This document shows positions 1 through 19,444 of a DNA stretch of 64,000 nt, piece after piece. The stretch is from Thermoleophilaceae bacterium (GTDB lineage: Bacteria; Actinomycetota; Thermoleophilia; Solirubrobacterales; Thermoleophilaceae), in contig DASQKP010000031.1 of assembly GCA_035630455.1 (NCBI GenBank), forward strand, positions 21,429 through 85,428. Reading direction: 5' to 3'. Made by a program: the position numbers and the translations under genes. The notes under the pieces were generated by a model. It searched no databases. It was given only the letters and a program-made list of their open reading frames with translations, and was not told where the DNA came from. Position 1 is the stretch's first letter. Each line of letters opens with the position of its first letter.

Positions 1-227
1 TGGATCTGGCTCAGCAGGTCCTTCTTGCTGTCCATGTAGTGGTAGAGCCCGCCGCGCTGGAGGCCGGTGGCCTCGACGAGGTCCTCGATCGACGTCGCGT
101 GGTACCCGCGCTCGGCGAAGACGCGCGCCGCGCTGTCGACCACCTCGCGACGGCGCTTGTCGTAGCGGGCGCTGACCTTGCCGCCATTGCCGGCGCCGGC
201 GAAATCGGCCTTACGCTGCTTGGCCAC
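1..227 (-). CDS. TetR/AcrR-family transcriptional regulator, N-terminal part only (gene runs off the left edge)
   Basis: Minus-strand frame absent from the ORF track (no stop in window). My hand translation from GTG 227 reads VAKQRKADFAGAGNGGKVSARYDKRRREVVDSAARVFAERGYHATSIEDLVEATGLQRGGLYHYMDSKKDLLSQI, a typical TetR helix-turn-helix. The GTG overlaps the ADH stop codon, so the start is tentative. Confidence 0.6.
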   Translation of the reverse strand, partial: MAKQRKADFAGAGNGGKVSARYDKRRREVVDSAARVFAERGYHATSIEDLVEATGLQRGGLYHYMDSKKDLLSQI

Positions 228-2467: not shown

Positions 2468-2475
2468 TGGCAAAG

Positions 2476-2495
2476 TATATCGAACAGTTGGTATA
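2476..2495. promoter_or_regulatory. AT-rich imperfect palindrome TATATCGAACAGTTGGTATA, candidate operator inside the 37-bp divergent ACAD/E2 promoter region
   Basis: Read directly. 15/20 identical to a second copy at 17925-17944. Its TATA arms coincide with -10-like hexamers on both strands (TATAAC 2492-2497 on plus; TATACT 2479-2474 on minus). Confidence 0.5.
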
Positions 2496-2504
2496 ACTTT
2501 CCAA

Positions 2505-3766: not shown

Positions 3767-4717
3767 ATGGCCCGTTCTAAAGCACAGACCCAGGAACTGC
3801 TCGACAGCTACCGCACGATGCTGCGCATCCGCCGCTTCGAGGAGGCCGTCGCGCGCCACTTCCGCGCCGGCGACGTCCACGGCTTCGTCCACGTGTCGAT
3901 CGGCCAGGAGGCCGTCGCCGCGGGCGCCTGTGGACCCCTCGGCGCCGGCGACGTCATCACCACGACGCATCGCGGCCACGGCCACTGCATCGCCAAGGGC
4001 GCAGACCCCGAAGCGATGATGGCGGAGCTCTTCGGCCGCGACACGGGAATCTGCCGTGGCAAGGGAGGGTCGATGCACATCGCCGACCCCGCGCTCGGCA
4101 TCCTCGGCGCGAACGGGGTCGTCGGCGGCGGAATCCCGCTGGCGGTCGGAGCCGGACTGGCGGCGCGAGTGCGGCGTACCGGCACGATCGCGATGCCGTT
4201 CTTCGGCGAGGGCGCCGTCCATTCGGGCGCGTTCCACGAAGCGATGACGCTCGCGGTCGCGTGGTCGCTGCCGGTGGTGTTCGTCTGCGAGGACAACGGC
4301 TATGCCGAGTTCACCCGGTCCGGATCCTGGAAGGGACCGACCGTGGCCGACCGCGCGCGCAGCTACGGCATGCCCGCGGAGGAGGTCGACGGCAGCGACG
4401 TGCTCGCCGTGCGCGCGGCCGTGCTCGCCAGCGCCGAGCCTGCCCGCGCGGGCGACGGGCCCCGCTTCCTCGTCGCCCACACGTTCCGCTTCAGCGGCCA
4501 CTACGAGGGCGACCCGGAGCCCTACCGCGAGGACGACGACCGTGCCCTCTGGGACGAGCGCGACCCGCTGGCGGTGGCCCGCAAGGCGCTCGGCAGCCGG
4601 CACGACGCGGCGCTCGAGCAGCTCGGCGAGCAGGTGGCCGAGGAGATCGACGCCGCAGTCAAGCGCGCCGCCGAGGCGCCCTACCCCACCGCAAGCGAGG
4701 TCTTCGATCATGTCTGA
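3767..4717 (+). CDS. 2-oxoacid dehydrogenase E1 component, alpha subunit (TPP-dependent)
   Basis: ATG lies 2 nt after the E2 stop (MARSKAQTQELLDSYRTMLRIRRFEE...). TPP-binding motif GEGAVHSGAFHEAMTLAVAWSLPVVFVCEDNGYA. Confidence 0.9.
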   Translation: MARSKAQTQELLDSYRTMLRIRRFEEAVARHFRAGDVHGFVHVSIGQEAVAAGACGPLGAGDVITTTHRGHGHCIAKGADPEAMMAELFGRDTGICRGKGGSMHIADPALGILGANGVVGGGIPLAVGAGLAARVRRTGTIAMPFFGEGAVHSGAFHEAMTLAVAWSLPVVFVCEDNGYAEFTRSGSWKGPTVADRARSYGMPAEEVDGSDVLAVRAAVLASAEPARAGDGPRFLVAHTFRFSGHYEGDPEPYREDDDRALWDERDPLAVARKALGSRHDAALEQLGEQVAEEIDAAVKRAAEAPYPTASEVFDHV

Positions 4718-5687
4718 AACTCCGCGCTACATGGAGGCGGTCAACCAGGCGCTCGCCGACGAGATGGAGCGCGACGACGACGTCATCCTGATGGGAGTCG
4801 ACGTCGGCGAGGCCGGCGGCGTCTACGGCGTCACCAAGGGCCTCTACGAGCGCTTCGGCGCGGAGCGGGTCTGGGACACGCCGATCGCCGAAGCCGGCGT
4901 GCTCGGCGCGGCGACCGGCGCCGCCATCTCCGGGCTGCGCCCCGTCGCCGAGGTGATGTACATGGACTTCATCTCGGTCTGCCTCGACCCGATCGTCAAC
5001 CAGGCGGCGAAGCTCCGCTACATGACCGGCGGCGGCGTGACGGTGCCGATAGTGTTCCGGATGCAGACCGGCGGCGGCCGCAGCGGCGGCGCCCAGCACT
5101 CCCAGAGCCTCGAGGCCGTGTTGGCCCACATTCCCGGCCTGAAGGTCTTCTGCCCCGCCGACGCCCGCGACGCGCACGACCTGCTCGTCGAGGCGATCCG
5201 CGACCCGGGGCCCGTCTGCTACGTCGAGAACCGGCGCCTCTACCGGCGCCGCGACGACGAGTGGGACCGCCCCGCCCTGCCCGCCGGGCAGCCGCGGATC
5301 GTGCGCGCAGGCGAAGGAGCGACGGTCGTGACGTGGGGCCGGATGGTCTCCGAGACGCGTGCCGTCCTCGACGAGCTGGACGGCGCCGCGGCGAACGTCG
5401 AGCTGATCGACCTCCGCACGCTCGTGCCGTGCGACCTCGCGATCGTCGCGGAGAGCGTGCGCCGGACCGGCCGCTGCCTGGTCGTCCACGAAGCGGTCGA
5501 GCGTCATGGACCAGGCGGCGAGATCGTCGCGCGACTGGTCGAGCAGGTGCTCTGGCACGTCGACGGCCCGGTGCGACGCCTCGGCGCGCTGCCGACGCCG
5601 GTCCCCTACAGCCCCCCGCTCGAGGCCGAGATGCTGCCGTCGCCTGAGCGGATCGCCGAGGCGATCCGCGCGCTGCTCGACGACTGA
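4710..5687 (+). CDS. 2-oxoacid dehydrogenase E1 component, beta subunit
   Basis: ATG 4710 overlaps the E1alpha stop (ATGTCTGA). MSETPRYMEAVNQALADEMERDDDVILMGVDVGEAGGVYGVTKGLYERFG is typical of the transketolase-like E1beta fold. Confidence 0.9.
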   Translation: MSETPRYMEAVNQALADEMERDDDVILMGVDVGEAGGVYGVTKGLYERFGAERVWDTPIAEAGVLGAATGAAISGLRPVAEVMYMDFISVCLDPIVNQAAKLRYMTGGGVTVPIVFRMQTGGGRSGGAQHSQSLEAVLAHIPGLKVFCPADARDAHDLLVEAIRDPGPVCYVENRRLYRRRDDEWDRPALPAGQPRIVRAGEGATVVTWGRMVSETRAVLDELDGAAANVELIDLRTLVPCDLAIVAESVRRTGRCLVVHEAVERHGPGGEIVARLVEQVLWHVDGPVRRLGALPTPVPYSPPLEAEMLPSPERIAEAIRALLDD

Positions 5688-5701: not shown

Positions 5702-6484
5702 TCAGCCGATGCCGGTCCAGCGCGGCGGGCGGCGCTCGAGGAAGGCCTGCGGCCCCTCGACGGCGTCCTCGGTCGCGCGCACTCGCACCCAGGAGGAGTC
5801 GTTCTGGCGCCAGCCGTCGGCGGCCGTCCCCTCGACCGTCGCGGCGACGATCGCCATGCTCTCCTCGATCGCCACCGGGGCGTTGGCCGCGATCCGGCCG
5901 GCGATCTCGAGCGCCCGGTCGAGGACCTCGGCGCGCGGCACGCAGTGGTTGACCAGCCCGAGCCGCTCGGCCTCGGCCGCTCCGATCCGGTCGGCGGTCA
6001 AGATCAGCTCGAGGGCCTTCTTCGGACCGATCGCCTGCGGCAGGCGGATCAGCCCGCCGGCCCCGGCGATGATGCCGACCCGGACCTCGGGCAGCGAGAA
6101 CTGGGCCTCCTCGGCGGCGACCACGATGTCGCAGGCGAGCGCCAGCTCGCATCCGCCGGCGAGCGCGAATCCGTTGACGGCCGCGATCAGCGGCTTGCGT
6201 CGCCGCCCGCGAACGATCCCGCAGAAGCCGCCCTCGATTCCGATGATGCCGTCGAGCTCGCCGCGGTCGAGGGCGCCCAGGTCGGCGCCGGCCGAGAAGG
6301 CGCTACCGGCGCCTGTCAGCACCCCGACGCGCACCTCGGGATCGTCCTCGAGCCGGCGGATCGTCGCGGCAACCGCGCTCGACGTCGCCGCGTCGACGGC
6401 GTTGCGCAGCTCCGGGCGGTTGAGCGTGACGATCGCGACCTGTCCGCGCCGCTCCCAGAGGACGTTCGCCTCGGCGTCGCTCAT
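5702..6484 (-). CDS. Enoyl-CoA hydratase/isomerase (crotonase family)
   Basis: ORF trimmed to ATG 6484 (ATGA overlap with the SDR stop). VAIVTLNRPELRNAVD ... LTGAGSAFSAGADL crotonase motifs. Confidence 0.9.
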   Translation of the reverse strand: MSDAEANVLWERRGQVAIVTLNRPELRNAVDAATSSAVAATIRRLEDDPEVRVGVLTGAGSAFSAGADLGALDRGELDGIIGIEGGFCGIVRGRRRKPLIAAVNGFALAGGCELALACDIVVAAEEAQFSLPEVRVGIIAGAGGLIRLPQAIGPKKALELILTADRIGAAEAERLGLVNHCVPRAEVLDRALEIAGRIAANAPVAIEESMAIVAATVEGTAADGWRQNDSSWVRVRATEDAVEGPQAFLERRPPRWTGIG

Positions 6485-7266
6485 GCGAGCAGCCCGCCGT
6501 CGACGTAGAGCGTCACGCCGTTGACGTAGGCGGCGGCATCCGACGCGAGGAAGGCGATGGCCGCGGCGATGTCGCCCGGCTGGCCCCAGCGGCGCAGCGG
6601 GATCTGCTCGATGCTCGACTCGAAGAACTCGCCGTCGTTGCGCAACCCGCTGCTGAGCTGGGTGTCGATCCAGCCCGGGCCGAGGCAGTTGACGCGCACG
6701 CCGCGCGGGCCCCACTCGCGCGCCGCCGCGCGGCTCAGCCCGACGACCGCGGCCTTGGCGGCGGAGTAGTAGGACATCTTCTCGATCCCGCGTCGCGCGG
6801 CGATCGAGACCACGTTGGTCACAGACGACTCGGCCGGGCGCTCGAACAGCAGCGGCGCACACGCGCGCATGACGTTCTGGACGGCGGTCAGGTTGAGCGC
6901 GATCGCCTGGTCGAAGTGCTCCGGGTCGACCTTCTCGATCGCTCGGATCCACTGCGCCCCGCCCGCGTTGTTGACGACGATCTGCAGCCCTCCGAGCTCG
7001 TCGCCGACCCGGCTGACGAGGCTCTCGACCTGCTCTCGATCGGTCACGTCGCAGGTGATCGGCAGCGCGCGCCGGCCAAGCGCCTCCACCTCGGCCGCCA
7101 CGGACTCGATCTCATCCGCGGTCCGCGCGGCCAGCGCGACGTCGGCGCCGAGCTGCGCTAACGCGAGCGCGGTGGCGCGGCCGATCCCACGGCCGGCGCC
7201 CGTCACGAGCGCCGTCCGACCGTCGAGGCCGAAATCGACCCTGTCCGAAATTGCCTCGGCCGTCAT
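6481..7266 (-). CDS. Short-chain dehydrogenase/reductase (3-hydroxyacyl-CoA/3-oxoacyl reductase-like)
   Basis: TGAGRGIG cofactor motif, NNAG, and catalytic YSAAKAAV (YxxxK). Confidence 0.9.
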   Translation of the reverse strand: MTAEAISDRVDFGLDGRTALVTGAGRGIGRATALALAQLGADVALAARTADEIESVAAEVEALGRRALPITCDVTDREQVESLVSRVGDELGGLQIVVNNAGGAQWIRAIEKVDPEHFDQAIALNLTAVQNVMRACAPLLFERPAESSVTNVVSIAARRGIEKMSYYSAAKAAVVGLSRAAAREWGPRGVRVNCLGPGWIDTQLSSGLRNDGEFFESSIEQIPLRRWGQPGDIAAAIAFLASDAAAYVNGVTLYVDGGLLA

Positions 7267-8834
7267 GCCACGACCTCCGCCTGCTCGCGCTCGCGCAGCG
7301 CCCGCTTGAGGACCTTGCCGGAGGGGTTGCGCGGCAGCTCGTCCACGAACCGGAAGCCCTTCGGCACCTTGTAGCCAGAGAGCCGCTCGCGGCAGAACGC
7401 CGTCAGCTCGTCCGGCGACGGCACCGCCTCGCCGCGCGCGACGACGTAGGCGACCGGAGCCTCTCCCCAGCGCTCGTCGGGCCGCCCGACGACGGCGACC
7501 TCGGAGACCGCGGGGTGCTCGTAGAGAACCCGCTCGACCTCCGAGGAGGCGATGTTCTCGCCGCCAGAGAGGATCATGTCCTTGAGCCGGTCGACGATGA
7601 ACAGGTATCCGTCTTCGTCAAGCATGCCGATGTCGCCGGTGTGCAGCCAGCCTCCGCGCAACGCAATTGCCGTCGTCTCCTCGTCGTAGATGTAGCCCTT
7701 GCAGACTTTCGGCCCGCGCATGACGATCTCGCCGGGCGTGTTGGGCGGCACGGGCCGGTCGTCCTCGTCGACTATCCGGACCTCCGCGTTGCAGACTGGC
7801 CGGCCGACCGAGCCCAGCTTGTGGGTCGTCAGGCGCTTGTCGAGGAAGGTGTCGCCGCTGACTGTCTCGGTCATCCCGTAGCCATCGGCGAACCATGCGT
7901 TGGGAAACGCTGCCAGCACGCGCTCGATCAGCGGCAGTGGCATCTTCTCGCCGCCGTCGCTGAGCAGCAGCACCGAACTCAGGTCACGCTCGCCGAGCGA
8001 CGGATCGGCGAGAACCGAGTTGATCATCACCGGCGCCATCCAGACGTGGGTGATCCGCAGCCGCTCGATGGCGTCGAGCGCCTGGGCCGCGTCGAAGCGA
8101 CGCAGGATGTGGCTCTCGCCACCGACCTGGAGCATCGACGTGGTCACCATGTCGAGGCCGCCAACGTGGTAGAGCGGTCCGCAGACCAGGTTGCGGTGCG
8201 CGGCGGTGAACCCGAACTCGACGGTGTGCGCGAGGTTCTTGGCTTCGAGGTTGGCGAACGTGATCATCACGCCCTTGGGTCGCGACGTCGTTCCGGACGT
8301 GTACATCAGCCTCGCCATGTCGTCGCCGGCCACCTCGACCGGCGCCTCGATCGGCTCGGCCGCCGCGCCCAGCGCGTCCAGCTCGGTCCAGCCCTCATGC
8401 GGGAGGAGGCCGATCACGCCGTCGCAGCACAGCTCGCCGGCGGCCTCGACCAACTCGGCGAGCTCCGGCTCGCTGATCAGCAGTCGCGTGCGTGCGTGGT
8501 TGACGATGTAGTTCAGCTCGGGCCCCGCCAGGCGCCAGTTGAGCGGCATCAACACTGCGCCGATGTGGGCGCAGGCGTACATCAGCTCGACGAAGCGGAT
8601 GTCGTTGTGCAGCAGCACGCCGACCACGTCGCCGCGCCGTGCCCCGGCGGTGGCGAGCGCGCCGGCCGTCGTCTTGACCCGCTCGTGGAGCTGCGCCCAT
8701 GTCATCTGCGACCCGTTGCCCGCCAGCGCCAGCGCGCCGCCGCGGCGGTCGGCGTGGTGAGCGAGCACGCGGCTCGGGTTGACCGCGGGCTGCTCCACGA
8801 GTCCGTCCGCGCGACCGCCGTTGGCGGCGCTCAT
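7263..8834 (-). CDS. AMP-forming acyl-CoA synthetase / ligase
   Basis: ORF trimmed to ATG 8834 (ATGA overlap). Motifs YTSGTTSRPKGV, GWLHTGDIG and C-terminal PRNPSGKVLKRAL. Confidence 0.9.
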   Translation of the reverse strand: MSAANGGRADGLVEQPAVNPSRVLAHHADRRGGALALAGNGSQMTWAQLHERVKTTAGALATAGARRGDVVGVLLHNDIRFVELMYACAHIGAVLMPLNWRLAGPELNYIVNHARTRLLISEPELAELVEAAGELCCDGVIGLLPHEGWTELDALGAAAEPIEAPVEVAGDDMARLMYTSGTTSRPKGVMITFANLEAKNLAHTVEFGFTAAHRNLVCGPLYHVGGLDMVTTSMLQVGGESHILRRFDAAQALDAIERLRITHVWMAPVMINSVLADPSLGERDLSSVLLLSDGGEKMPLPLIERVLAAFPNAWFADGYGMTETVSGDTFLDKRLTTHKLGSVGRPVCNAEVRIVDEDDRPVPPNTPGEIVMRGPKVCKGYIYDEETTAIALRGGWLHTGDIGMLDEDGYLFIVDRLKDMILSGGENIASSEVERVLYEHPAVSEVAVVGRPDERWGEAPVAYVVARGEAVPSPDELTAFCRERLSGYKVPKGFRFVDELPRNPSGKVLKRALREREQAEVVA

Positions 8835-10201
8835 CGGCGGGTTCCGATCTCGTGCGCGCCGCTGGCGAGACCGCTGCCCGGGCTGGGTCCGACGATCTCC
8901 AGCCGGGTTCCCCAGGGATCTTCGAAGTAAGCCGCCTGCCAGCCGTGGAGTGGGTGCTGCGGGTCCTCCACGTCGATCGGCTCGACGACGAACCGGACCC
9001 CCGCCGCCGCCAGCCGCTGGTGCACCTCGCGCACGTCGCGCACGCCGAACGAGACGTGGTCGAGGCCCGGGTCCACGATTGTCCGCCGGGTGGTGGCGTC
9101 GTCGTCGCCGCGCGGCTGATGAAGCCACAGCTCGATCCGGCTGCCGCCTGGGCAGAGCAGCTGCACGACCCCCCCGGTCGCGTCCTCCAGTCCGGTCACG
9201 GCTGTGAGGAAGCCACCTTCCAGGGCGTGGCGCCAATCCTCCTCGAGACCGAGGATGTCCCGGTAGAACCGCAGGCCGGCCTCAATGTCGGGCACCTCGA
9301 TCGCGATGTGCGACCCGATGCCCGAGACCCAGTCTCCGTCGAGGCCGGTGGCGAGCGGCCCGCCCGTGGCGGGTTTGCCCTCGACGCGCGCGAGGAACGG
9401 GCGCAGCCGCGCCACGCAGTCCCGCCAGTGCGACAGCACGACACCGTGGAAGGCGCCCGAGACGAACGCGAGCTCGCCCCGAGGAGCCGCCGCGGCGAGC
9501 GCCTCGGCGTTCGACGGATCGACGAACGGGCTGCGCTCCGGCGAGATCACCAGCAGCGGCGCCTGCAGCTTTCCGACCGCGTCGGAGAGGTCGACTCCCA
9601 TCAGGCAGATGGCGATCCCGGTGACCACGCGCGGGTCGATGTTCCGCTGGCGGGCGGCCAGCCACTCCGCGATCGCCGGATCGACGTCGGGCCCAAGGCG
9701 GCCACTGACGATCTCCTCGACCCAGGTCGTCATGCCCTCCTCGGTGGCAACGAGGTCAGGCCAGTGCGCGATGTTGGCGATCCGCGTCCCGTCGAACGCC
9801 GTCGAGCAGGTCGTGACCGACCGCACCCGCGCCGGGTTCGCCGCGGCGAAGGCGAGGCCGATAGTCCCGCCGAACGACTCGCCGACAAAGTGGAAGGCGT
9901 CGACGCCGGCGGCGTCGAGCACGCGCTCGAGATCGTCGACGAAGCGCTCGAACGGGTAGCCGTCGGCCGACCACGCGGCGGCCGACTCGCCGTGGCCGCG
10001 CAGGTCGATGGCGAGCACGGGCCGGTCGGCCGCGACGGCCGCGATCCAGGGGCGCCACACGTCGAGCGACAGCCCGAGGCCGTGCAGGAAGACGATCGGA
10101 GTCGCGTCCGGGGCCCACGGCGGGCGCAGGTCTACGGTCGCGAAGGCCAGCTCGTCGCCGTCGACGTCGATCGTCTGGCGATCCAGCGGTTGCGCCGTCA
10201 T
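8831..10201 (-). CDS. Fusion protein: N-terminal alpha/beta-hydrolase (enol-lactonase/MCP-hydrolase-like) plus C-terminal VOC (glyoxalase/extradiol dioxygenase-fold) domain
   Basis: ATG 10201 (ATGA overlap with the ATPase stop). The N-terminal half has IVFLHGLGLSLDVWRPW, LRGHGES and the nucleophile elbow GESFGG. The C-terminal ~150 aa has HIAIEVPDIEAGLRFYRDILGL, LDHVSFGV and YFEDPWGTRLEI, i.e. the paired beta-alpha-beta-beta-beta modules with His/His/Glu ligand positions. Confidence 0.8.
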   Translation of the reverse strand: MTAQPLDRQTIDVDGDELAFATVDLRPPWAPDATPIVFLHGLGLSLDVWRPWIAAVAADRPVLAIDLRGHGESAAAWSADGYPFERFVDDLERVLDAAGVDAFHFVGESFGGTIGLAFAAANPARVRSVTTCSTAFDGTRIANIAHWPDLVATEEGMTTWVEEIVSGRLGPDVDPAIAEWLAARQRNIDPRVVTGIAICLMGVDLSDAVGKLQAPLLVISPERSPFVDPSNAEALAAAAPRGELAFVSGAFHGVVLSHWRDCVARLRPFLARVEGKPATGGPLATGLDGDWVSGIGSHIAIEVPDIEAGLRFYRDILGLEEDWRHALEGGFLTAVTGLEDATGGVVQLLCPGGSRIELWLHQPRGDDDATTRRTIVDPGLDHVSFGVRDVREVHQRLAAAGVRFVVEPIDVEDPQHPLHGWQAAYFEDPWGTRLEIVGPSPGSGLASGAHEIGTRR

Positions 10202-11778
10202 GTCGCCTCGACCGGCAGTCGGTCGCCTCCGTGCCCGTAGCAAGCCGCCGAGATCGCGTGCTCATTCAGCTGACCGCCGGTCAGCTCGACGTGGAGGCCG
10301 CCCTCCCAGAGGACGAGGACGCGGCTCGCGACCTGAGCGAGCTCGTCGTGCTCGCTCGACACGATCAGGACCGCCATCGACTCCTCGGCGGCCGCCGCCA
10401 GCACCTTGTTGAAGATCTCGCGCCGGGCCTCGATATCGACGCCGTGCGCCGGCTCGTGGAGGATCAGCAGCTTGGGTCCGAGGCCCATCCACTTGCCGAG
10501 CAGGGCCTTCTGCTGGTTGCCGCCGCTGAGCTGGCCGAAGACGGCGTGCGGCGTACGCGGCTTGACGGCGTACCGCTCGGTCAGGTCGCGGACGTCGCGG
10601 ACCTGGCGGTCGCCGTCGAGCCAGCCGCGACGGAAGTAGTCGCCCAGCGTCGCGAGGGTGACGTTCTCCGTCACGGTCGCCTCGGCCACCGCCCCCTCGC
10701 CGATCCGCTGACCGGGAACCAGCGCCACGCCGGCGCGGATCGCGTCGCGCGGCCTGGCCTGTCCGAGCTCGGTCCCGTCGACCTCGATCGAGCCGCTCGC
10801 AGCCTTGGTCGCGCCGAAGAGCAGGCCGGGCAGCTCGTCCTGGCCCATCCCCAGCAGTCCCGTGACACCCACCACCTCGCCGGCGCGGACCTCGAACGAG
10901 AGGTCGCGCAGGATCGCGCCGTTCAAGCCGCGCACGCGCAGCACCTCGGCCGCGGCGCTGGCCTGCAGCCGCCCGCCGGACAGCTCCTCGACGTCGCGGC
11001 CGACGATCAGGCGGATCAGCTCGCGCTCGGTGAGGTCCGCGGTCGGCACCGTTCCGGCGCCGCGCCCGTCGCGCAGCACCGTGACCGCGTCGGTGACGGC
11101 GGTGATCTCGTCGAGCCGATGGCTGACGAACAGGACGGCGCTGCCGTCGCCGGCGACGCGCCGGACGGCGGTGAAGAGGCGCTCGACCTGGTCGTCGGGG
11201 AGCGCCGCGGTCGCCTCGTCGAGCACCAGCAGGCCGGCGCCGTGGGCGCCCTCGATCCCGTCGAGCGCGCGGGCGATGGCGAGGATCGCGCGCTCGCCGC
11301 CCGGCAGCGCGGCGACGGGCTGGTCGATGTCCAGATCGAGCTCGAAGCGCGCGAGCAGGCGGCGGGCGTCGGCGCGCGCCGCGCGCCAGCGCAGCCGCCG
11401 CAGCGGCGGCTCGGTCGCCCACTGGGCGATCCGCAGGTTGTCGACGATCGACAGCGTGTCGACGAGCGCGAGGTCCTGGTGGAGGATCGAGATTCCGAGC
11501 GCGGCCGGGCCACGCGGACCGAGCGGCAGCTCCACGTCCTCGCCCCGCACCGCGAGCCTGCCCCCCGGATCCGGCGCGTGGAAGCCGCCGAGGATCTTGA
11601 TGAACGTCGACTTGCCGCAGCCGTTCTGGCCGATCAGCCCGTGCACGGTGCCCGGGGCGATGTCGAGCGAGAAGTCGCTCAGCGCGGCTGTCGAGCCGAA
11701 CGTCTTGGAGATCCCCCTGACGGAGAGGATCGGCACGTCCGCGCCCGGCGCCGCGGCCGCCTGAGCCGGCGCCGTCAT
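10198..11778 (-). CDS. ABC transporter ATP-binding protein with two fused NBDs (CUT2/RbsA-type)
   Basis: ORF trimmed to ATG 11778 (ATGA overlap). Walker A GQNGCGKST, second-half signature LSGGNQQKALLGKW. 526 aa, consistent with tandem NBDs. Confidence 0.9.
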   Translation of the reverse strand: MTAPAQAAAAPGADVPILSVRGISKTFGSTAALSDFSLDIAPGTVHGLIGQNGCGKSTFIKILGGFHAPDPGGRLAVRGEDVELPLGPRGPAALGISILHQDLALVDTLSIVDNLRIAQWATEPPLRRLRWRAARADARRLLARFELDLDIDQPVAALPGGERAILAIARALDGIEGAHGAGLLVLDEATAALPDDQVERLFTAVRRVAGDGSAVLFVSHRLDEITAVTDAVTVLRDGRGAGTVPTADLTERELIRLIVGRDVEELSGGRLQASAAAEVLRVRGLNGAILRDLSFEVRAGEVVGVTGLLGMGQDELPGLLFGATKAASGSIEVDGTELGQARPRDAIRAGVALVPGQRIGEGAVAEATVTENVTLATLGDYFRRGWLDGDRQVRDVRDLTERYAVKPRTPHAVFGQLSGGNQQKALLGKWMGLGPKLLILHEPAHGVDIEARREIFNKVLAAAAEESMAVLIVSSEHDELAQVASRVLVLWEGGLHVELTGGQLNEHAISAACYGHGGDRLPVEAT

Positions 11779-12815
11779 GCCGCGCTCCCGGCGGCCGCGC
11801 GGCGGCGCCCTACGACCAGCGACAGCGCGACCGCGAGCACGAGCACCGTGCCGTTGAAGATGTCGGTGATGTAGCCGGTGGCCCCGGTCGTGATCTGGAG
11901 GCCGACGATCCCGGTGATCACCAGGTAGATCGCCGCGACCGTCCCCCAGGCGTTGAAGCGGCCGGGCTTGATGGTCGTCGCCCCGAGGAACGCTCCGGCG
12001 AAGGCCGACAGCAAATAGGACTGGGCCGAGAACGGATCGACCGCGTTGAGCAGCCCGCCCTGGAGCAGGCCCGCGAGCGCGGCGATCAGCGAGCTCGCGA
12101 CGAGCGCCACGGTGCGCACGGCCCCGACTGGGATGCCGTTGAGTCGCGCGACCTCGGGGCCGGAGCCGACGAAGTAGAGCCAGCGGCCGACCGGCGTGTG
12201 CTCCAGCACGTACCAGAGCGCGAACGCGAGGCCGATCGCGTAGTAGAAGGTGAGCGGAAGGCCGAGCAGCCGAGTCGAGCTGACGGTGACGACGACCTCC
12301 GGCAGACCGGAGAACGTCTTGGACTCGGTCAGGAGCAGCGTCAGGCCACCGAGCGCCGTCCCGGTGCCGAGCGTCGTGATGAACGAGTTGACGCCGACCT
12401 TGACGATGAAGAAGGCGTTGGTGAGGCCGATCGCAACCGCCAGCGCCAGCGCGAACAGGAGCGCCGGCACGACCGGCCAGCTGTGGTCGACGGTGACGAG
12501 CGCGAACATCGCCGAGACGAACGCGAACACGCCGACGATCGAGAGGTCGAACTCGCCCGCCGCGAGCGGGATCGTCAACCCGAGCGCCAGCATCAGCAGG
12601 ATCGCCTGCGTACCGAGGATGTTCTGCAGGTTGGTGACCGTGAAGAACTGGCTCGGCGCCACCAGCGAGAAGACCACCACCAGGACCACCAGCAGCGCGG
12701 GAACGCCGAACCGGTAGAGCACCTCGCCGGCCCACCAGCCCGCGCTGCGGCGGGCGGTGGCCGGCTGGTCGGCCAGGTCAGCCACGTCGGTCCGCGCGCA
12801 GCTTCGCCGTCGCAT
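11775..12815 (-). CDS. ABC transporter permease (RbsC/CUT2-type)
   Basis: Polytopic hydrophobic protein with the GEFDLSIVGV motif region typical of ribose-type permeases. Alternative GTG start at 12785 would give an 8-nt overlap (GTGGCTGA) with the HyuB stop. Confidence 0.85.
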   Translation of the reverse strand: MRRRSCARTDVADLADQPATARRSAGWWAGEVLYRFGVPALLVVLVVVFSLVAPSQFFTVTNLQNILGTQAILLMLALGLTIPLAAGEFDLSIVGVFAFVSAMFALVTVDHSWPVVPALLFALALAVAIGLTNAFFIVKVGVNSFITTLGTGTALGGLTLLLTESKTFSGLPEVVVTVSSTRLLGLPLTFYYAIGLAFALWYVLEHTPVGRWLYFVGSGPEVARLNGIPVGAVRTVALVASSLIAALAGLLQGGLLNAVDPFSAQSYLLSAFAGAFLGATTIKPGRFNAWGTVAAIYLVITGIVGLQITTGATGYITDIFNGTVLVLAVALSLVVGRRRAAAGSAA

Positions 12816-14589
12816 CGACGTCGACGGTCATCGCCTGGGGATCGATCACGACTCCGTACTGCTCGGACGCGATCTCGAGCGTGATGAACTCGTCGCGGAG
12901 GTCGGTCAGGACCGCCTCGGGGTCACGCTCGAGCGGGTCGCCGAAGCCACCGCCGGACGCCTGCTCCCAGCGGATCGTGCTGCCGGCCTCCATCGGGTGG
13001 TTGGTGACCTTCGAGGGCAGCTCCTCGACGTCGCCGTCGGCGCCGAACTTGGTGACCCGCAGCGGCGTTCCGTCGCTGCCGCCGAAGATCCCCCAGGGCG
13101 CCTCGTAGGTGCCCTCGGCCTCGCTGGTCATGACGGTGTCGACGAGGAACCGGCTCTCGCGGACACTCGCCACGCCGCCGCGCCACTGGCCCGCGGCCGG
13201 CGGATCTGGACGCAGCTCGTAGCGCTCGGTGCGGATCGGGAAGAGCATGTCGAGCTCCTCGATCGGGACGTTGCGCGAGTTGATGACCAGCGTGTCGACG
13301 GCGTCGAGGCCGTCCTTGCCCTGCCGGCCTCCGTAGCTGCCCTCGATGATGTCGTAGTGGCTCCAGTACTCCTGCTTCTCCTCGTCGAAGCCGGCATACA
13401 CCGCCACCGAGAGCGTGCTCGTGCCGGCTGAGATCTTGTCCGGCACGACCTGGGCCAGCGCCTTCATCGCCGTGTCGCCCGCCGTGCAGACCAGGCAGGC
13501 GCGCGGGCCCGCCGAGCGCGGGAACGCGGGGTTGAAGATCGTGCCCACCGGCGCGATCACCGTCACGGGCCGGAAGAGGCCGTGGTTCTGCGGGATCCCC
13601 TGGTCGGCGAAGACCGCCTGGTCGAGGAAGATCGAGCGCACGATCGTGTAGAAGCCCGGAACCGTCGAGCCCCCGAACGGGCAGTTGAAGCCCGTCAGCG
13701 AGTTCTCCTCGCTGCCTGTCAGGTCGCAGGTGACGTTCGAGCCCTCGATCGTGACCTTGGCCTTGACCTTGAGCGGCTTGTCACGGTTGCGCCCGTCGTC
13801 GTCGAGGTAGCCCTCGGCCTCCCAGCTGCCGTCGGGGATCTTCTCGATCTCGGCGCGCATCATCCGCTCGCTGTAGTCGAGCCACTCGCCGATCGCCGGC
13901 ATCACGGTGTCCTTGCCGTACTTCTCCAGTAGCTCGTGCATCCGCCGCTCGCCGAGCCGACAGGTCGCGATCATCGCCTCGGTGTCGCCCTCGACGTAGG
14001 TCGGGGTGCGCGTGTTGTCGAGGAAGAACCGCCAGAGCATCTCGTTGCGGACACCGCGGTCGTAGAGCTTGAGCGAGTCGTAGATCTTGGCCTCGGCGAA
14101 GACGTCGAAGACGTCGATCGCGATGCCCGGGAAGACGCCGCCGACATCGGTCAGGTGGGTCGTCGCCGCCGACCACGCCACCTGCTCGCCCTCCCAGAAG
14201 ATCGGGACGGCGACGAGCAGGTCGGGCGCATGCGAGGCACCCTCGTAGGGGTTGTTGTGGATGATGACGTCGCCCTCGTTGACGTCGCCCTCGAGCCGCC
14301 GCATGAAGCCCTGGATGTAGGCGGGGATCGAGCCGATGTGCATCGGGCTGGTGTCGCTCTCGCAGATCTCCTCGCCGGCGACCGTGAACAGGCCGCCGCC
14401 GATGTCCTCGACCTGCTGCGCGCCGGGCGAGAAGGCCAGCCGCTTGATCGCGTGGCCCATCTCGTGGCCGGCGGCGACGAACGCCCCGCCGATCACCGCG
14501 AGCGTCACGGGATCGACGGTGCCGTGGCCACCGTGGGCCGCCTCGGCGCGCGACTTCGGACGCGCTGGAGCAGTCGAACCGTCAGACAT
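12778..14589 (-). CDS. Hydantoinase B/oxoprolinase-family protein (HyuB-like)
   Basis: 603 aa. N-terminus DPVTLAVIGGAFVAAGHEMGHAIKRLAFSPGAQQVEDIGGGLF matches the hydantoinase_B fold. Overlaps the HyuA stop by 8 nt (ATGTCTGA). Confidence 0.9.
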   Translation of the reverse strand: MSDGSTAPARPKSRAEAAHGGHGTVDPVTLAVIGGAFVAAGHEMGHAIKRLAFSPGAQQVEDIGGGLFTVAGEEICESDTSPMHIGSIPAYIQGFMRRLEGDVNEGDVIIHNNPYEGASHAPDLLVAVPIFWEGEQVAWSAATTHLTDVGGVFPGIAIDVFDVFAEAKIYDSLKLYDRGVRNEMLWRFFLDNTRTPTYVEGDTEAMIATCRLGERRMHELLEKYGKDTVMPAIGEWLDYSERMMRAEIEKIPDGSWEAEGYLDDDGRNRDKPLKVKAKVTIEGSNVTCDLTGSEENSLTGFNCPFGGSTVPGFYTIVRSIFLDQAVFADQGIPQNHGLFRPVTVIAPVGTIFNPAFPRSAGPRACLVCTAGDTAMKALAQVVPDKISAGTSTLSVAVYAGFDEEKQEYWSHYDIIEGSYGGRQGKDGLDAVDTLVINSRNVPIEELDMLFPIRTERYELRPDPPAAGQWRGGVASVRESRFLVDTVMTSEAEGTYEAPWGIFGGSDGTPLRVTKFGADGDVEELPSKVTNHPMEAGSTIRWEQASGGGFGDPLERDPEAVLTDLRDEFITLEIASEQYGVVIDPQAMTVDVDATAKLRADRRG

Positions 14590-16681
14590 TCTGGGCCTCC
14601 GTGCAATCGATGATGACGTTGCCGTACTGATCCACTTCCGCTCTCAGGTCGGGTGGCAACACGGTCGTCGCGGTCTGGTGGTCGATGATCGCCGGGCCTG
14701 TCACGACGTTGCCCGCGAGCAGCTTGGACCCGTCGTAGAAGGCCGTGTCCAGCCGCTCCGTGACTCCGCCGACCTCGAACGCCACCGGGGCGCGCTCGAT
14801 GACCGCATCGTCCGGGGGCGTCTCGCCGCCGGCCTCGATCTGGTTGAGCTCCAGGTCGGGCATGAGCCCGATCCCGTAAACCCGCAGGTGGACGATCTGG
14901 ACCGGCTTCTCGCTGCCGAAGCGCCAGAAGTACTCCCGCTCGTGCGCGTCGTGGAACGACTCCTCGAGTTGCGCGATAGCCGCGTCGTCGAACTCGCCCG
15001 ACGGAGCCGGGACGAGCAGCTCGTAGGCCTGCCCGACGTAGCGGCAGTCGGCGTGGCGCTGCAGGATCATCTCGCTCTCGTCGACGCCGGCCTGCGCCAG
15101 CGACTCGCGCGCCTGCTCCTCCAGCTCGGCGAACACCGCCTGGAGGTCCGCCGGGTTGGCGGAGGGAACGTCGACCATGACGGTGCGCGAGTACTCGTAC
15201 TTGAGGTCCGCGGCGAGCAGGCCGAGCGCCGAGGTCACTCCCGGCTGGCCCGGCACGACCACCGACGGGATCGACAGCTCACGGGCGATCTCCGCGGCCC
15301 ACAGCGGGCCGGCTCCTCCGAAGGCGACGAGGCTGAAGTCGCGCGGGTCGAAGCCCTTGCGGACGCTGTTCAGCTCGATCGCCCGCACCATGTTGTGCGT
15401 GAGGATCTTGAGCGCCGCCATCGCCGCGTCGTCGCGGTCGCGGTCGCCGACACGGCCGACGATGTGGTCGTCGAAGGCCTTCTCCGCGGCCTCGACGTCG
15501 ATCGACATCCGCCCATCGAGCAGGCCCTGGGGACGGAGGCGGCCGAGCACCACCTGTGCGTCGGTCGCGGTCGCCTCGACCCCGCCCTTGCCGTAGCTCG
15601 CCGGGCCCGGGATCGCGCCCGCGCTGCTCGGCCCGACCTGTAGGAGGCCGCCCGAGTCGACACGGGCGATCGAGCCGCCGCCGGCGCCGATCGCGTCCAT
15701 GTCGACCATCGGCAGCATCACGTCGTAGCCGCCGATCGCCGTGTCGTAGAGCCTGCGCATCCGCAGCTCCCCGCCGGGCGCGACGCCGATGTCGGCGGAG
15801 GTGCCGCCGACGTCGAGGGTGATCACGTTCGGATGCCCCGTCTGGCGCCCGATCCAGACCCCGCCGATGATTCCGGCGACCGGGCCCGACATAAGCAGCG
15901 AGACCGGCTTGGCGCTGGCGTCGGGGACGCTCACGACGCCGCCGCTGGAGGTCATCAGGCCGATGTCCAGCTCCGGCGCGTCCGTGGCCAGCGCCTCGCG
16001 CAGGTTGTCGAGGTAGCGGCCGGTCTTGGGGCCGATGTACGCGTTGAGGCAGGCCGTCGAGAACCGCTCGTACTCGCGGTGCAGCGGCACCACCTCGTGG
16101 CTGACCGACAGGTACGCCTCCGGGAACTCCTCACGGACGATCTCGGCGGCGCGCTTCTCGTGGTCGGAGTTGAGGAAGGCGAAGAGGAAGCCGACGGTGA
16201 TCGCGTCGACCCCGTCGGCCTTCAGCTCGCGGACAGTCTGGCGGACCTTCTCCTCGTCGAGCGGCACGAGGACGTCGCCGCTCGGCGCGTCGATCTTCTC
16301 CGGGACCACGCGCCGGTTGGCACGCGACGCCAGCGAGGGCTCCCGCCAGGGCAGGTCCTGCTGGATCGAGAACGTGAACGGGCGGCGGTGACGGCCGATG
16401 TAGAGCACGTCCCGGTAGCCCTCGGTGGTGATGAAGCCCACCTCGCTGCCGTTCTTCTCGAGCACGATGTTCGTACCGACGGTCGTCCCGTGAAGCAGCT
16501 GGTCGATGTCGGAGACCTCGACGTCGTGCATCTCACAGATCTCGCGCAGGCCCGCCAGCAGCGCCTCCGCCGGGTTGGACGGCGACGACGGCAGCTTGTG
16601 GACCTCGATCCGCTTCTGCTCCGCGTTCCAGTAGACGAGGTCGGTGAACGTTCCGCCGACGTCTGCGCCAACGCGGTTCAC
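14582..16681 (-). CDS. Hydantoinase A/oxoprolinase-family protein (HyuA-like, ATP-binding ASKHA fold)
   Basis: ORF trimmed to GTG 16681 (GTGA overlap with the binding-protein stop). VNRVGADVGGTFTDLVYW N-terminal motif plus an internal DVGGTSADIG phosphate-binding motif. Confidence 0.9.
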   Translation of the reverse strand: MNRVGADVGGTFTDLVYWNAEQKRIEVHKLPSSPSNPAEALLAGLREICEMHDVEVSDIDQLLHGTTVGTNIVLEKNGSEVGFITTEGYRDVLYIGRHRRPFTFSIQQDLPWREPSLASRANRRVVPEKIDAPSGDVLVPLDEEKVRQTVRELKADGVDAITVGFLFAFLNSDHEKRAAEIVREEFPEAYLSVSHEVVPLHREYERFSTACLNAYIGPKTGRYLDNLREALATDAPELDIGLMTSSGGVVSVPDASAKPVSLLMSGPVAGIIGGVWIGRQTGHPNVITLDVGGTSADIGVAPGGELRMRRLYDTAIGGYDVMLPMVDMDAIGAGGGSIARVDSGGLLQVGPSSAGAIPGPASYGKGGVEATATDAQVVLGRLRPQGLLDGRMSIDVEAAEKAFDDHIVGRVGDRDRDDAAMAALKILTHNMVRAIELNSVRKGFDPRDFSLVAFGGAGPLWAAEIARELSIPSVVVPGQPGVTSALGLLAADLKYEYSRTVMVDVPSANPADLQAVFAELEEQARESLAQAGVDESEMILQRHADCRYVGQAYELLVPAPSGEFDDAAIAQLEESFHDAHEREYFWRFGSEKPVQIVHLRVYGIGLMPDLELNQIEAGGETPPDDAVIERAPVAFEVGGVTERLDTAFYDGSKLLAGNVVTGPAIIDHQTATTVLPPDLRAEVDQYGNVIIDCTEAQNV

Positions 16682-17895
16682 TGGGTCACCTCCGGCATGC
16701 TCCACTGACGTCGGTAGGCGTCCTCGTAGGCGGTCGACTTGCCGCCCTTGGTGATCACGTCCCAGAGTTCGTCCTGGTCCTCGAGCGCGCTCGCGGGGAT
16801 GTCCTTGAGGTTCTCGTAGGTGAACAGCTTCTGCGGGATGTTCTGCTCGGACGGCTCCGCGCCGGCTGCCAGGCGCAGGCCCTGGTCGTAGAAGGCCCAG
16901 CCGAGGCCCTTGTTGTTCTGGCCGACGCTGCCCAGCTGAACGTCGCCCTTCTTGATCCAGCGCAGGTTCGGGTCCAGCGCGCCGTTCTCGGAGACGATGT
17001 GGATGTCGTCCTGCTTGCCGAGTTGGCGGATGGCGGGCGCGATGAAGTTGCCGATCACGTCGATCGACGGCGCGAACCAGTTCAGCTCGGGGTTGCGGCT
17101 GATCAGCGTCTTGGTGAGGCTCGGGATCTCGGTGTTCAGCGTCGCGACGCGGGCGTCGGACTCGGCCACCTCGGCGTCCGGGCAGAACTGCCCGAGCGCG
17201 TCCTTGAAGCCGGCGGCGACGTTCTTGGTCGAGCGGTACTCCGAGACCGTGATGACGTGGGCGTTGACGTCGCACTTGTCACGGACGGCGGCGTACGCGG
17301 CCATCACCTCGCCGGCCTCGGTGTAGCTGTAGGTCGCGTTGGCGTTGGTGCCCGGATCGAGCGGGTCGTCAGGGTCGCCGTTGTTGGCGCTGACGACCGG
17401 GATGCCGGCCTCCTGGGCCTTCTCCAGCGGTCCGGCGAACGCCTTCGGGTCGAGCGAGAACAGCACGATCGCGCCGGCCTTCTGCTGGATCGCCTGCTCG
17501 ATGCCGCGCTGCATCTCGGAGATGTCGTTCTGCCCGTCGAAGACCACGCCCTCGACGCCGGCGGTCTTGCCGGCGTCCTCAAACGCCTCGACGACGACCT
17601 GTACGAAGGGGATGCCGAGCGTCGGCGAGATCAAGTGGATGGGGTTGGTCTTGCCGCGCAACTCGGCGACGTCGATCGGCTCGCCGCCCGGGTCGAACAC
17701 GGCCGGCCCGGAGAAGTCGTCGACCAGGCGCTGAGCCTCCTCGAGGCCGGTGCCGGCGCTTGCGCCGTCACCTGATCCCTGGCTGTCGCCGGCTGGACTG
17801 TCGTCCCCGCCGCAGGCCGCGATGAACAGCGCCAGCACTGCTACGACAAGCGCGACGAAGTTCCGAATGGTGTGGGGACGTGCGAGCAAGCTCAC
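16678..17895 (-). CDS. ABC transporter substrate-binding lipoprotein (PBP type 1, sugar-binding-like)
   Basis: GTG 17895 is preceded by AAGGAGAG. Signal peptide plus lipobox (LALFIAACGG). The body resembles ribose/monosaccharide-type periplasmic binding proteins. Confidence 0.85.
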   Translation of the reverse strand: MSLLARPHTIRNFVALVVAVLALFIAACGGDDSPAGDSQGSGDGASAGTGLEEAQRLVDDFSGPAVFDPGGEPIDVAELRGKTNPIHLISPTLGIPFVQVVVEAFEDAGKTAGVEGVVFDGQNDISEMQRGIEQAIQQKAGAIVLFSLDPKAFAGPLEKAQEAGIPVVSANNGDPDDPLDPGTNANATYSYTEAGEVMAAYAAVRDKCDVNAHVITVSEYRSTKNVAAGFKDALGQFCPDAEVAESDARVATLNTEIPSLTKTLISRNPELNWFAPSIDVIGNFIAPAIRQLGKQDDIHIVSENGALDPNLRWIKKGDVQLGSVGQNNKGLGWAFYDQGLRLAAGAEPSEQNIPQKLFTYENLKDIPASALEDQDELWDVITKGGKSTAYEDAYRRQWSMPEVTQ

Positions 17896-17924: not shown

Positions 17925-17944
17925 TATACCGAACGAGCGGTATA
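17925..17944. promoter_or_regulatory. AT-rich palindrome TATACCGAACGAGCGGTATA, candidate operator of the nine-gene operon
   Basis: Read directly. 7-bp perfect arms TATACCG/CGGTATA with a 6-bp spacer. It overlaps the predicted -10 and sits 30-49 nt upstream of the binding-protein start. 15/20 identical to 2476-2495. Confidence 0.5.
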
Positions 17945-17969
17945 ATACAGAGGGGGTTATCCCTGTCAA
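17942..17969 (-). promoter_or_regulatory. Sigma70/SigA-like promoter: TTGACA (17969-17964), 16 nt spacer, TATTAT (17947-17942)
   Basis: The minus strand reads cTTGACAgggataaccccctctgTATTATaccg. The -35 overlaps the stop codon of the upstream MFS gene. Confidence 0.5.
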
Positions 17970-19444
17970 GCAGGCCAACTGGCTGGCGCTGTCGACTCTT
18001 CGATTCCCGCTTCCAAAGCGGGAATCCGGGGAATCGCAAGGGCGAAACCGGCCGCGACGAGCCCGGCGGCGGCCATCACCAGGAATGCCGCGACGTAGGC
18101 GCTCTCGGCCGGCGTCGCGGTCCCCTCGACCGTCGCGGCGGCCAGCAGCGTCGCGACGAGCGCGGCCGAGAAAGCGCCCCCGACGGCGCGCGCGACCGTG
18201 TTCAGGCCGGTGGCGATGCCTATGTCGCGGGCGTCCACCCCGGCAACGATCAGATTCGCCATCGACGTCCAGGCGAACGAGATCCCGCCGCCGATCAGCA
18301 CTCCCGCGAAGACCACGTCGCCGACGCCGTCGTGGGCCGCGGCGAGCGAGCCGAACGCCACGGCGACCAGCAGCGCCCCCAAGGCCAGCACCGCGCGCCC
18401 GCCGTAGCGATTCGCGAGCGCTCCGGCGACCGGTCCACAGACGAGCATCGCCACGGCACTCGGCAGCATCACCAACCCGGCTCCGACCATCGACAGGCCC
18501 AGCCCGTGACCTCCGTCGACGGCGACGTGGGAGTACTGCGGAATCAGGATGAACGACCCGAACATCGCCACGCCGACGAAGAAGCTCGCGCCGTTGGTCG
18601 CGAGCATCGACCGCTCCCCCAGCATCCGCATGTCGACCAACGGCTCCCGCACGCGCCCTTCGAGGACGGCGAAGGCCAGCAGCGTCCCCACGCCCGCAAG
18701 CATCAGCCCGACCGTCGGCGCGGCGCCCCAGCCCCACGCGCTCGCCTTGGAGATCGCCAGCAGCACGGCGACCAGCCCGAGCGACAGCACGGCGGCTCCA
18801 CCCCAGTCGAGCGTGGCCCGCCCGCGCGGCGGGTCGTTCGGCACGACCCACCAGACCGCGGCGGCCGCCGGCAGGGCGATCAGCCCGACGAGAAAGAGCC
18901 AGGCCAGCTCGCCATGGTCGAGGATCGCTCCCGCTAGCGGAAGGCCCATGCCGCCGCCGATACCGAAGGTCGCCGACAGCAGCCCGATCGCCACCGCCTT
19001 GCGCTCAGCGGGGAAGGTGTCGTTGACGATCCCGAAGGCAAGCGCGAAGACCCCTCCGGCGACTCCCTGGACCACTCTCCCGCCGATCAGCACCTCGATC
19101 GAGCCGGCAAGCGCGCAGATCACCGAGCCGAGCCCGAAGACGACGAGCACGGCCGTCAGCACCCGCCGCCTGCCGTGGAGATCGCCGAGCTTGCCGACCA
19201 GCGGCGCGCAGACGGCGGCGGACAGCAGATAGCCGGACAGCGCCCATGCCGCCGACGGGCCCGTAGTGCCGAACGCCTCCGCGATCGCCGGCAGGGCCGG
19301 CGCGACCATCGTGTGCAACAGCGAGAAGGAGAACGCCCCGATCAGCAGGGCGACCAAGACGGCAGCTGGCGAGCGGCCGTCCGCGGCGCTGGGTGATTGG
19401 GGGGCGGTGTAGGCGCGGCTAGCCATGCCGTCAGGCGCCGCCAC
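17966..19444 (-). CDS. MFS transporter (DHA2/EmrB-like drug:H+ antiporter family)
   Basis: 492 aa, about 14 hydrophobic segments. MFS motif LVGKLGDLHGRRRVL after TM2. Confidence 0.85.
   Translation of the reverse strand: MAAPDGMASRAYTAPQSPSAADGRSPAAVLVALLIGAFSFSLLHTMVAPALPAIAEAFGTTGPSAAWALSGYLLSAAVCAPLVGKLGDLHGRRRVLTAVLVVFGLGSVICALAGSIEVLIGGRVVQGVAGGVFALAFGIVNDTFPAERKAVAIGLLSATFGIGGGMGLPLAGAILDHGELAWLFLVGLIALPAAAAVWWVVPNDPPRGRATLDWGGAAVLSLGLVAVLLAISKASAWGWGAAPTVGLMLAGVGTLLAFAVLEGRVREPLVDMRMLGERSMLATNGASFFVGVAMFGSFILIPQYSHVAVDGGHGLGLSMVGAGLVMLPSAVAMLVCGPVAGALANRYGGRAVLALGALLVAVAFGSLAAAHDGVGDVVFAGVLIGGGISFAWTSMANLIVAGVDARDIGIATGLNTVARAVGGAFSAALVATLLAAATVEGTATPAESAYVAAFLVMAAAGLVAAGFALAIPRIPALEAGIEESTAPASWPA

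Follow-up and report, generated by a model that had tools for sequence, protein, structure and literature searches.

Two palindromic sites predicted to place three catabolic operons of a Thermoleophilaceae bacterium under one TetR repressor of the KstR2/PfmR subfamily

A TetR operator shared between transcription units is nothing unusual in bacterial gene control. KstR2 senses acyl-CoA and represses a catabolic regulon; its effector is HIP-CoA and its box is AnCAAGnnCTTGnT. BkaR (Rv2506 / MSMEG_4718) of mycobacteria is an autoregulated TetR repressor of acyl-CoA and branched-chain keto-acid dehydrogenase genes; its dimers bind palindromes within a divergent promoter region, with two operators (GTTA-N-T-N4-A-N-TAAC) per intergenic region (PMC3920632). 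In Thermus thermophilus, the TetR repressor PaaR (TTHA0973) governs a CoA-dependent catabolic pathway through a palindromic operator with AACG/CGTT-type half-sites and the consensus AACnAACGTTnGTT (PMC6651687). PfmR (TTHB023) of T. thermophilus HB8 is the protein of structure entry 3VPR, the identity of the entry being confirmed (PMC10636190). In PMC7022988, the PfmR operator consensus of Agari et al. (2012, J Bacteriol 194:4630) is given as TACCGACCGNTNGGTN, and the natural sites, bound at 0.3–5 nM, read CCTACCGACCGGTCGG, CTTACCGACCGGTTGG and TTTACCGACCGGTTGG, together with an overlapping pair reading ACTACCGACCGTTCGGTAAG. The same paper describes PfmR as autoregulated, with an operon of its own that contains ACADs, an SDR, a MaoC dehydratase and an acyl-CoA ligase, and describes its sites as spanning -10 boxes and start points (PMC7022988).

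Layout of the island and its two candidate operators

The stretch of DNA analysed here (64 kb; the window) comes from contig C31 of the draft genome G000, an uncultured MAG of 2.4 Mb in 44 contigs with 70% GC. The layout of the original prediction holds, with a minus-strand TetR–ADH–ACAD operon, a divergent E2–E1alpha–E1beta unit and a minus-strand nine-gene operon starting at 17895. The island genes (those of the nine-gene operon named from Pfam/NCBIfam) and the two predicted operators are as follows.

1–227, minus strand: 5' part of the TetR gene (whole gene C31:21023-21655, 210 aa)
211–1263, minus strand: Zn-dependent alcohol dehydrogenase (ADH), middle gene of the ACAD–ADH–TetR operon
1286–2467, minus strand: acyl-CoA dehydrogenase (ACAD), first gene of the ACAD–ADH–TetR operon
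2476–2495: predicted operator O2, TATATCGAACAGTTGGTATA, at the centre of the 37-bp ACAD/E2 intergenic region
2505–3764, plus strand: E2, first gene of the divergent unit
3767–4717, plus strand: E1alpha, divergent unit
4710–5687, plus strand: E1beta, divergent unit
5702–17895, minus strand: nine-gene operon, convergent on E1beta
16678–17895, minus strand: binding protein, operon gene 1
14582–16681, minus strand: HyuA, operon gene 2
12778–14589, minus strand: HyuB, operon gene 3
11775–12785, minus strand: permease, operon gene 4
10198–11778, minus strand: tandem ATPase, operon gene 5
8831–10201, minus strand: alpha/beta-hydrolase::VOC, operon gene 6
7263–8834, minus strand: acyl-CoA ligase, operon gene 7
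6481–7266, minus strand: SDR, operon gene 8
5702–6484, minus strand: enoyl-CoA hydratase, operon gene 9
17925–17944: predicted operator O1, TATACCGAACGAGCGGTATA, with perfect 7-bp arms TATACCG/CGGTATA

Every junction within the nine-gene operon is an overlap of 4 or 8 nt. The TetR gene runs 405 nt to the left of the window; it begins with GTG and shares 17 nt with the end of the ADH gene. To its left lie a convergent MFS transporter gene and uvrC, so that the TetR gene marks the end of the island. We saw no other regulator gene among the island genes, which agrees with the claim that TetR is the only one there. ACAD is syntenic with TetR in most orthologous loci. The E2, E1alpha and E1beta proteins form a PDH/BCKDH-like 2-oxoacid dehydrogenase, with NCBIfam scores that are PDH-like but under the cut-offs. 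An E3-less order recurs elsewhere: in L011, E1beta, E1alpha and E2 lie beside ACAD, and L013 and L014 have E1beta and E2 matches there. The MFS transporter that converges with the TetR gene (C31:19453-21006, left of the window) is of the 14-helix type; MFS genes also flank the TetR orthologues in L018 and L030, and another MFS gene (17966–19444) ends 20 nt upstream of O1.

On one side of O1 is the stop of the latter MFS gene (17966), and on the other the nine-gene operon, which starts at 17895; O2 is 15 kb away. The palindrome of O2 is weak, with ATCG...TGGT where ACCG...CGGT is expected. The coordinates first given for the two sites are exact, as is the description of them as identical at 15 of 20 positions in the same orientation, each followed by an A.

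Several scans show how rare such sequences are. With up to three mismatches, the earlier consensus TATAYCGAAC-N4-GGTATAA matches only O1 and O2 in the 64-kb window (0.03 expected from shuffles), and TATA-N12-TATA is found at these two places alone in the whole 2.4-Mb draft genome. A palindromic consensus built from the half-sites of O1 and O2, TATACCGAACGTTCGGTATA, scores 18 and 16 of 20 at the two sites and 14 at the genome runner-up. The genome-wide scan that had been proposed as a check thus returns no scattered intragenic copies of the motif. The earlier consensus itself has been replaced, the family consensus across loci being TAKACCGACYRGTCGGTMTA.

The regulator and the conservation of its candidate operator

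The TetR protein matches TetR_N (PF00440) with 53.7 bits (cut-off 24) and TetR_C_24 with 94.3 bits (cut-off 26.4), and it belongs to the KstR2/PfmR subfamily (TetR_N + TetR_C_24). The closest solved structures are KstR2 4W97 (E = 5.5e-24), PfmR 3VPR (2.4e-23), 3DCF and 2IBD (profile E = 7e-31); the alignment to 3VPR covers residues 26–208, and KstR2 scores equally well. A search of 5.8 billion proteins returned 456 homologues at E <= 1e-20, all with TetR_N + TetR_C_24, and the recognition helix TGLQRGGLYHY is invariant in an alignment of 30 homologues. Many homologues, P0005, P0006 and P0008 among them, carry the database label 'cholesterol catabolism regulator'. The annotated neighbours (Pfam/NCBIfam) include no steroid-degradation genes; the KstR2 box AnCAAGnnCTTGnT is absent from the island, and its one match with a single mismatch in the window, at 38227, is within chance. 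As there are no steroid genes and the operator is different, the label has likely been mis-transferred; it is probably a case of annotation over-transfer, and recognizing it would correct a probable mis-annotation of these homologues.

Other TetR genes exist in G000, none of them encoding another close paralogue. The only other strong TetR_C_24 protein of the genome (C32:183-524, minus strand) shares 24% identity with the island TetR and has a different recognition helix; no operator-like site was found on contig C32 (3.4 kb).

Using the 30-homologue alignment, we collected 36 related loci from MAGs of Solirubrobacterales, Thermoleophilaceae, Conexibacteraceae, Gaiellales, Rubrobacteraceae and Acidimicrobiaceae, together with a record each from Hyphomicrobiales and Streptomyces (L041 and L043), which match most weakly of all. 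In most of the 36 loci the TetR protein is 44–80% identical to that of the window, and nearly all of them contain one to four window-like palindromes, e.g. TATACCGAACGTACGGTATA (L020), TATACCGTACGTTCGGTATA (L039) and TATACCGACCGAACGGTATA (L016). Targets were assigned by mapping the window proteins onto the loci with tblastn and placing each site relative to the nearest start codons; in the loci listed, the motif comes immediately before the gene named.

Motif upstream of ACAD or SDR: L008, L011, L013, L014, L016, L019, L030, L031, L035–L037, L039, L040
Motif upstream of E2 or E1alpha: L008, L011–L014, L016, L017, L019, L026
Motif upstream of HyuA: L011, L014, L018, L019, L022, L026
Motif upstream of acyl-CoA ligase: L019
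Motif upstream of enoyl-CoA hydratase: L030
Motif upstream of a sugar-type binding protein: L010
Motif upstream of the TetR gene itself: L010, L015, L018, L023, L027–L029, L031–L033
O2-equivalent site in the gap between ACAD/SDR and E2/E1: L008, L011, L013, L014, L016, L019, L024, L035

The comparison with related genomes that had been suggested therefore came out in favour of the proposal: the motif is kept beside TetR orthologues of 44–80% identity in about 34 loci, where it fronts orthologues of the same genes. Two loci carry two operator copies directly before the TetR start codon, 30 bp apart from start to start (L027:9882-9931 and L029:9954-10003). Such pairing suggests that two dimers may bind at some autoregulated promoters, as against the single sites of the window. 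In the nearest relative (G020), where TetR is 97% identical, O1 and O2 are unchanged and nearby intergenic bases differ; this genome is too close to the window to be informative on its own.

The motif and the regulator also occur together. Of 41 relatives, G000 and G020 are the only ones with a close TetR orthologue, and they alone contain TATACCG-N6-CGGTATA. The strict pattern TANACCRN6YGGTNTA has 16 matches in the 0.536 Mb of orthologue loci; it matches in both orthologue-bearing genomes, and the 39 relatives without an orthologue yield two weak matches of a dissimilar TACACCG... form, in two genomes. In eight orthologue-bearing genomes a degenerate pattern with two mismatches says nothing about regulon size, because the reversed control matches as often. 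At zero or one mismatch, seven of the eight matches in these genomes fall within the TetR loci, and the eighth (G042:C11:304353) lies ∼22 kb outside L013 on the same contig. The island (TetR orthologue plus operator) is present in two of the 25 genomes of the genus, and TetR orthologues of 60–80% identity occur in other Thermoleophilia families; on this pattern the island looks like an accessory, possibly transferred, module.

We built a weight matrix (24 columns, strand-symmetrised) that converged on 53 sites in 34 loci beside TetR orthologues from Thermoleophilia, Rubrobacter, Gaiellales and Acidimicrobiia, with the window, its near-twin L008 and also L043 excluded. The seeds were picked by their likeness to a window-derived consensus, so the definition of the motif is not fully independent of the window; the enrichment beside TetR orthologues, unlike the definition, is independent of it. 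Seed sites matching that consensus at 15 or more of 20 positions number 30 in the loci except L008 and L043 (∼0.56 Mb), and the 2.4-Mb genome of the window has none besides O1 and O2. The matrix consensus is tTAKACCGACYRGTCGGTMTAa. Its information is highest at the inner ACC/GGT (1.5–1.7 bits), with 1.4 bits at the outer T/A, so that the AT-rich ends are not the best-conserved part of the site; the inner ACCG/CGGT is. When scored with this external matrix, O1 and O2 are the top two of 2.4 million genome positions, both at 29.1 bits, followed by a third match at 18.2 bits and all others at 12.9 bits or less. Eight genomes simulated with a third-order Markov model gave maxima of 14.1–19.4 bits, and none of the eight reached 25 bits.

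The third-best genome match, TCGACCGATCAGTCGGTCAA (C41:2627-2646, outside the window), lies at the 3' end of radA, ∼100 bp upstream of a probable gene that we take to be possibly disA. We dropped this site as a regulon member since it is compatible with chance, one of the eight simulated genomes reaching 18 bits.

Promoter overlap, proposed control and other readings

A promoter consensus scan and reading of the sequence around the two sites gave the following elements.

2474–2503, minus strand: predicted ACAD–ADH–TetR promoter, TGGAAA-18-TATACT (consensus scan)
2492–2497, plus strand: candidate -10 box TATAAC of E2–E1alpha–E1beta (read from the sequence)
17942–17969, minus strand: predicted promoter of the nine-gene operon, TTGACA (17969–17964), 16-nt spacer, TATTAT (17947–17942)

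The TTGACA-16-TATTAT promoter matches the consensus at 11 of 12 positions (0.1 expected in shuffles; consensus scan), and its TTGACA is kept in G020. Its TATTAT overlaps the upstream arm of O1, with the predicted start (∼17935) inside O1; after O1 come a Shine–Dalgarno sequence, AAGGAGAG, and the GTG at 17895. At O2, the TATACT (2479–2474) overlaps the left arm and ends 6 nt short of the ACAD ATG (2467). The claim that both sites overlap -10 hexamers is thus borne out by the consensus scan (TATTAT and TATACT). The right arm of O2 is TATAAC, which ends 7 nt short of the E2 ATG (2505) and went uncalled in the consensus scan because its final base is not T. The gap between the ACAD ATG at 2467 and the E2 ATG at 2505 is 37 bp (2468–2504) and leaves no space for a ribosome-binding site at either gene, so both transcripts are probably leaderless.

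The same arrangement is found elsewhere. In ten orthologous loci ACAD starts 8–13 nt past the end of the site, a distance into which a ribosome-binding site does not fit and at which the operator arm GGTATAnt falls at the -10 position; the arm with its flank before ACAD in those ten loci reads TATAGT, TATAAG, TATAAT or TATACT. In L008, E2 starts 9 nt past the site. Given this spacing and these -10-like arms, the arrangement of a probably leaderless transcript whose -10 box is supplied by the operator arm is conserved across orders. Because each outer TATA arm is also a -10 box, promoter function and not repressor contact could account for part of the sequence conservation there.

Taken together, rarity, conservation and co-occurrence with the regulator support the original proposal of a single TetR regulon that comprises the HyuAB/importer operon, the 2-oxoacid dehydrogenase operon and the ACAD–ADH–TetR operon. 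We consider it highly likely, from the sequence comparisons above, that O1 and O2 are operators of the adjacent KstR2/PfmR-subfamily TetR and that this protein co-controls the three catabolic operons. We infer that the protein binds there as a dimer, that it represses and does not activate, and what kind of effector it responds to. A TetR homodimer would place its helix–turn–helix heads on the inner ACCG and CGGT, the centres of which are 10 bp, or one helical turn, apart. On O2, which overlaps both -10 boxes before the operon that ends in TetR, the dimer would cover the -10 boxes of two promoters that stand back to back and are probably leaderless, and would thereby turn off ACAD–ADH–TetR (autoregulation) and E2–E1alpha–E1beta together. 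On O1 it would cover the -10 box and the predicted start of the importer/HyuAB/CoA-activation operon, and RNA polymerase would be blocked by protein on either site. As in KstR2 and other TetR_C_24 proteins, the ligand of the C-terminal domain is probably an acyl-CoA, here an intermediate of the pathway, which would free the repressor; the three operons would then be induced together. Judged by position, the acyl-CoA genes of the predicted regulon are ACAD, acyl-CoA ligase, enoyl-CoA hydratase and SDR, and an effector of this kind would fit the ligase, ACAD and hydratase genes among them.

It could be argued that the palindromes are promoter architecture and nothing else, with O2 being two back-to-back -10 boxes and O1 a -10 box with a chance inverted copy. 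At O2, both arms could serve divergent leaderless genes as -10 boxes, TATTAT overlaps an arm of O1, and in the orthologous loci the arm and its flank often read TATAAT or TATAGT at the right distance from ACAD. However, it is the inner ACCG/CGGT, without a promoter role, that is most conserved; the second arm is kept where no gene runs in that direction, e.g. before HyuA or before ACAD alone; the motif comes and goes with the TetR orthologue; and no comparable promoter is found elsewhere in the genome. We regard this explanation as highly improbable. A little less so, though still quite improbable in our judgement, is that O1 and O2 are genuine operators but belong to a different regulator and not to the neighbouring TetR; this could be another TetR paralogue or a protein encoded elsewhere. 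The genome does have further TetR genes, including that of the TetR_C_24 protein on C32, and the assembly is ∼90% complete, so a regulator could be absent from it. Nevertheless, the motif lies directly upstream of TetR orthologues in many loci, including those without other target genes (L020, L027, L029, L032, L033 and L042); the C32 paralogue, at only 24% identity, has another recognition helix; all orthologues with the motif have the same helix, TGLQRGGLYHY; and the homologue PfmR binds the same core.

The neighbouring TetR might also act as an activator or a dual regulator instead of a simple ligand-released repressor. Some TetR-family proteins do activate, and Mycobacterium FasR is named an activator in NCBIfam; the sites here overlap -10 boxes and predicted starts, though, and not upstream activator positions, and in the case of PfmR the sites span start points and the targets are up 3.6–3.9-fold in the deletion strain (PMC7022988). 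We give this possibility hardly any weight. A mobile-element or recombination-site reading was rejected because the sites sit in the promoters of syntenic operons in many genomes.

Beyond repression by the neighbouring TetR, a broader interpretation is possible, which as a whole we put forward only tentatively: TetR and its operator may mark a conserved, uncharacterised catabolic pathway of Thermoleophilia and Rubrobacter-like actinobacteria, in which the half-sites have been co-opted as leaderless -10 boxes. The parts of such a pathway would be an ATP-dependent HyuAB (caprolactamase- or carboxylase-like), a dedicated E3-less 2-oxoacid dehydrogenase, ACAD, ADH, SDR, ligase and hydratase. If this is true, the substrate and the repressor-releasing acyl-CoA effector would both be new, and one 20-bp element would serve as promoter and operator for two divergent operons within 37 bp. 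To our knowledge, almost no transcription factor–operator pair has been defined in Thermoleophilia, soil actinobacteria that are little studied, and the proposal provides a testable regulon for the class. It would link three operons into one pathway, with the effector of the repressor pointing to the substrate, and the weight matrix can be used to annotate the same regulon in dozens of MAGs. For promoter engineering in high-GC bacteria the compact layout would make a neat example, since the arms of one operator supply the -10 boxes for two leaderless promoters placed back to back within 37 bp. The regulon leaves current concepts of TetR regulation unchanged.

Comparison with described TetR systems

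Among the described regulators, KstR2 (Rv3557c; Mycobacterium and Rhodococcus; 4W97, 4W1U and 2IBD) is the best match of solved structure and has the same TetR_C_24 domain. PfmR, a TetR-family repressor homologous to the window TetR (E = 2e-23), is ∼30% identical to it and no closer than KstR2. With the window TetR about equidistant (∼30%) from PfmR and from KstR2, the operator of which is different, homology alone cannot predict the operator. BkaR resembles the island TetR in its autoregulation, in the palindromes of a divergent promoter and in its acyl-CoA and keto-acid dehydrogenase targets; it differs in its operator, which has no match in the window with up to one mismatch, and it is not among the close sequence matches to the window TetR. 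The PaaR consensus AACnAACGTTnGTT fits neither O1 nor O2, and there are no paa genes here.

PfmR is the system with the related operator. The natural PfmR sites share with the family consensus found here the core TACCGAC-N2-GTYGG(TA), the family consensus TAKACCGACYRGTCGGTMTA containing TACCGAC-N2-GTCGGTA. At the 13 specified positions of the Agari consensus, compared by eye, O1 matches at 11 and O2 at 10. The in vitro-selected (REPSA) PfmR consensus is centred 2 bp from the 16-bp dyad that is read in the natural sites. The Thermus sites differ in being without the outer TA...TA, which here forms the -10 boxes, and the PfmR regulon differs in content and phylum from the one predicted here, with its HyuAB, ABC importer and E1/E2 genes. 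The island TetR and O1/O2 would constitute a PfmR-like TetR repressor–operator pair.
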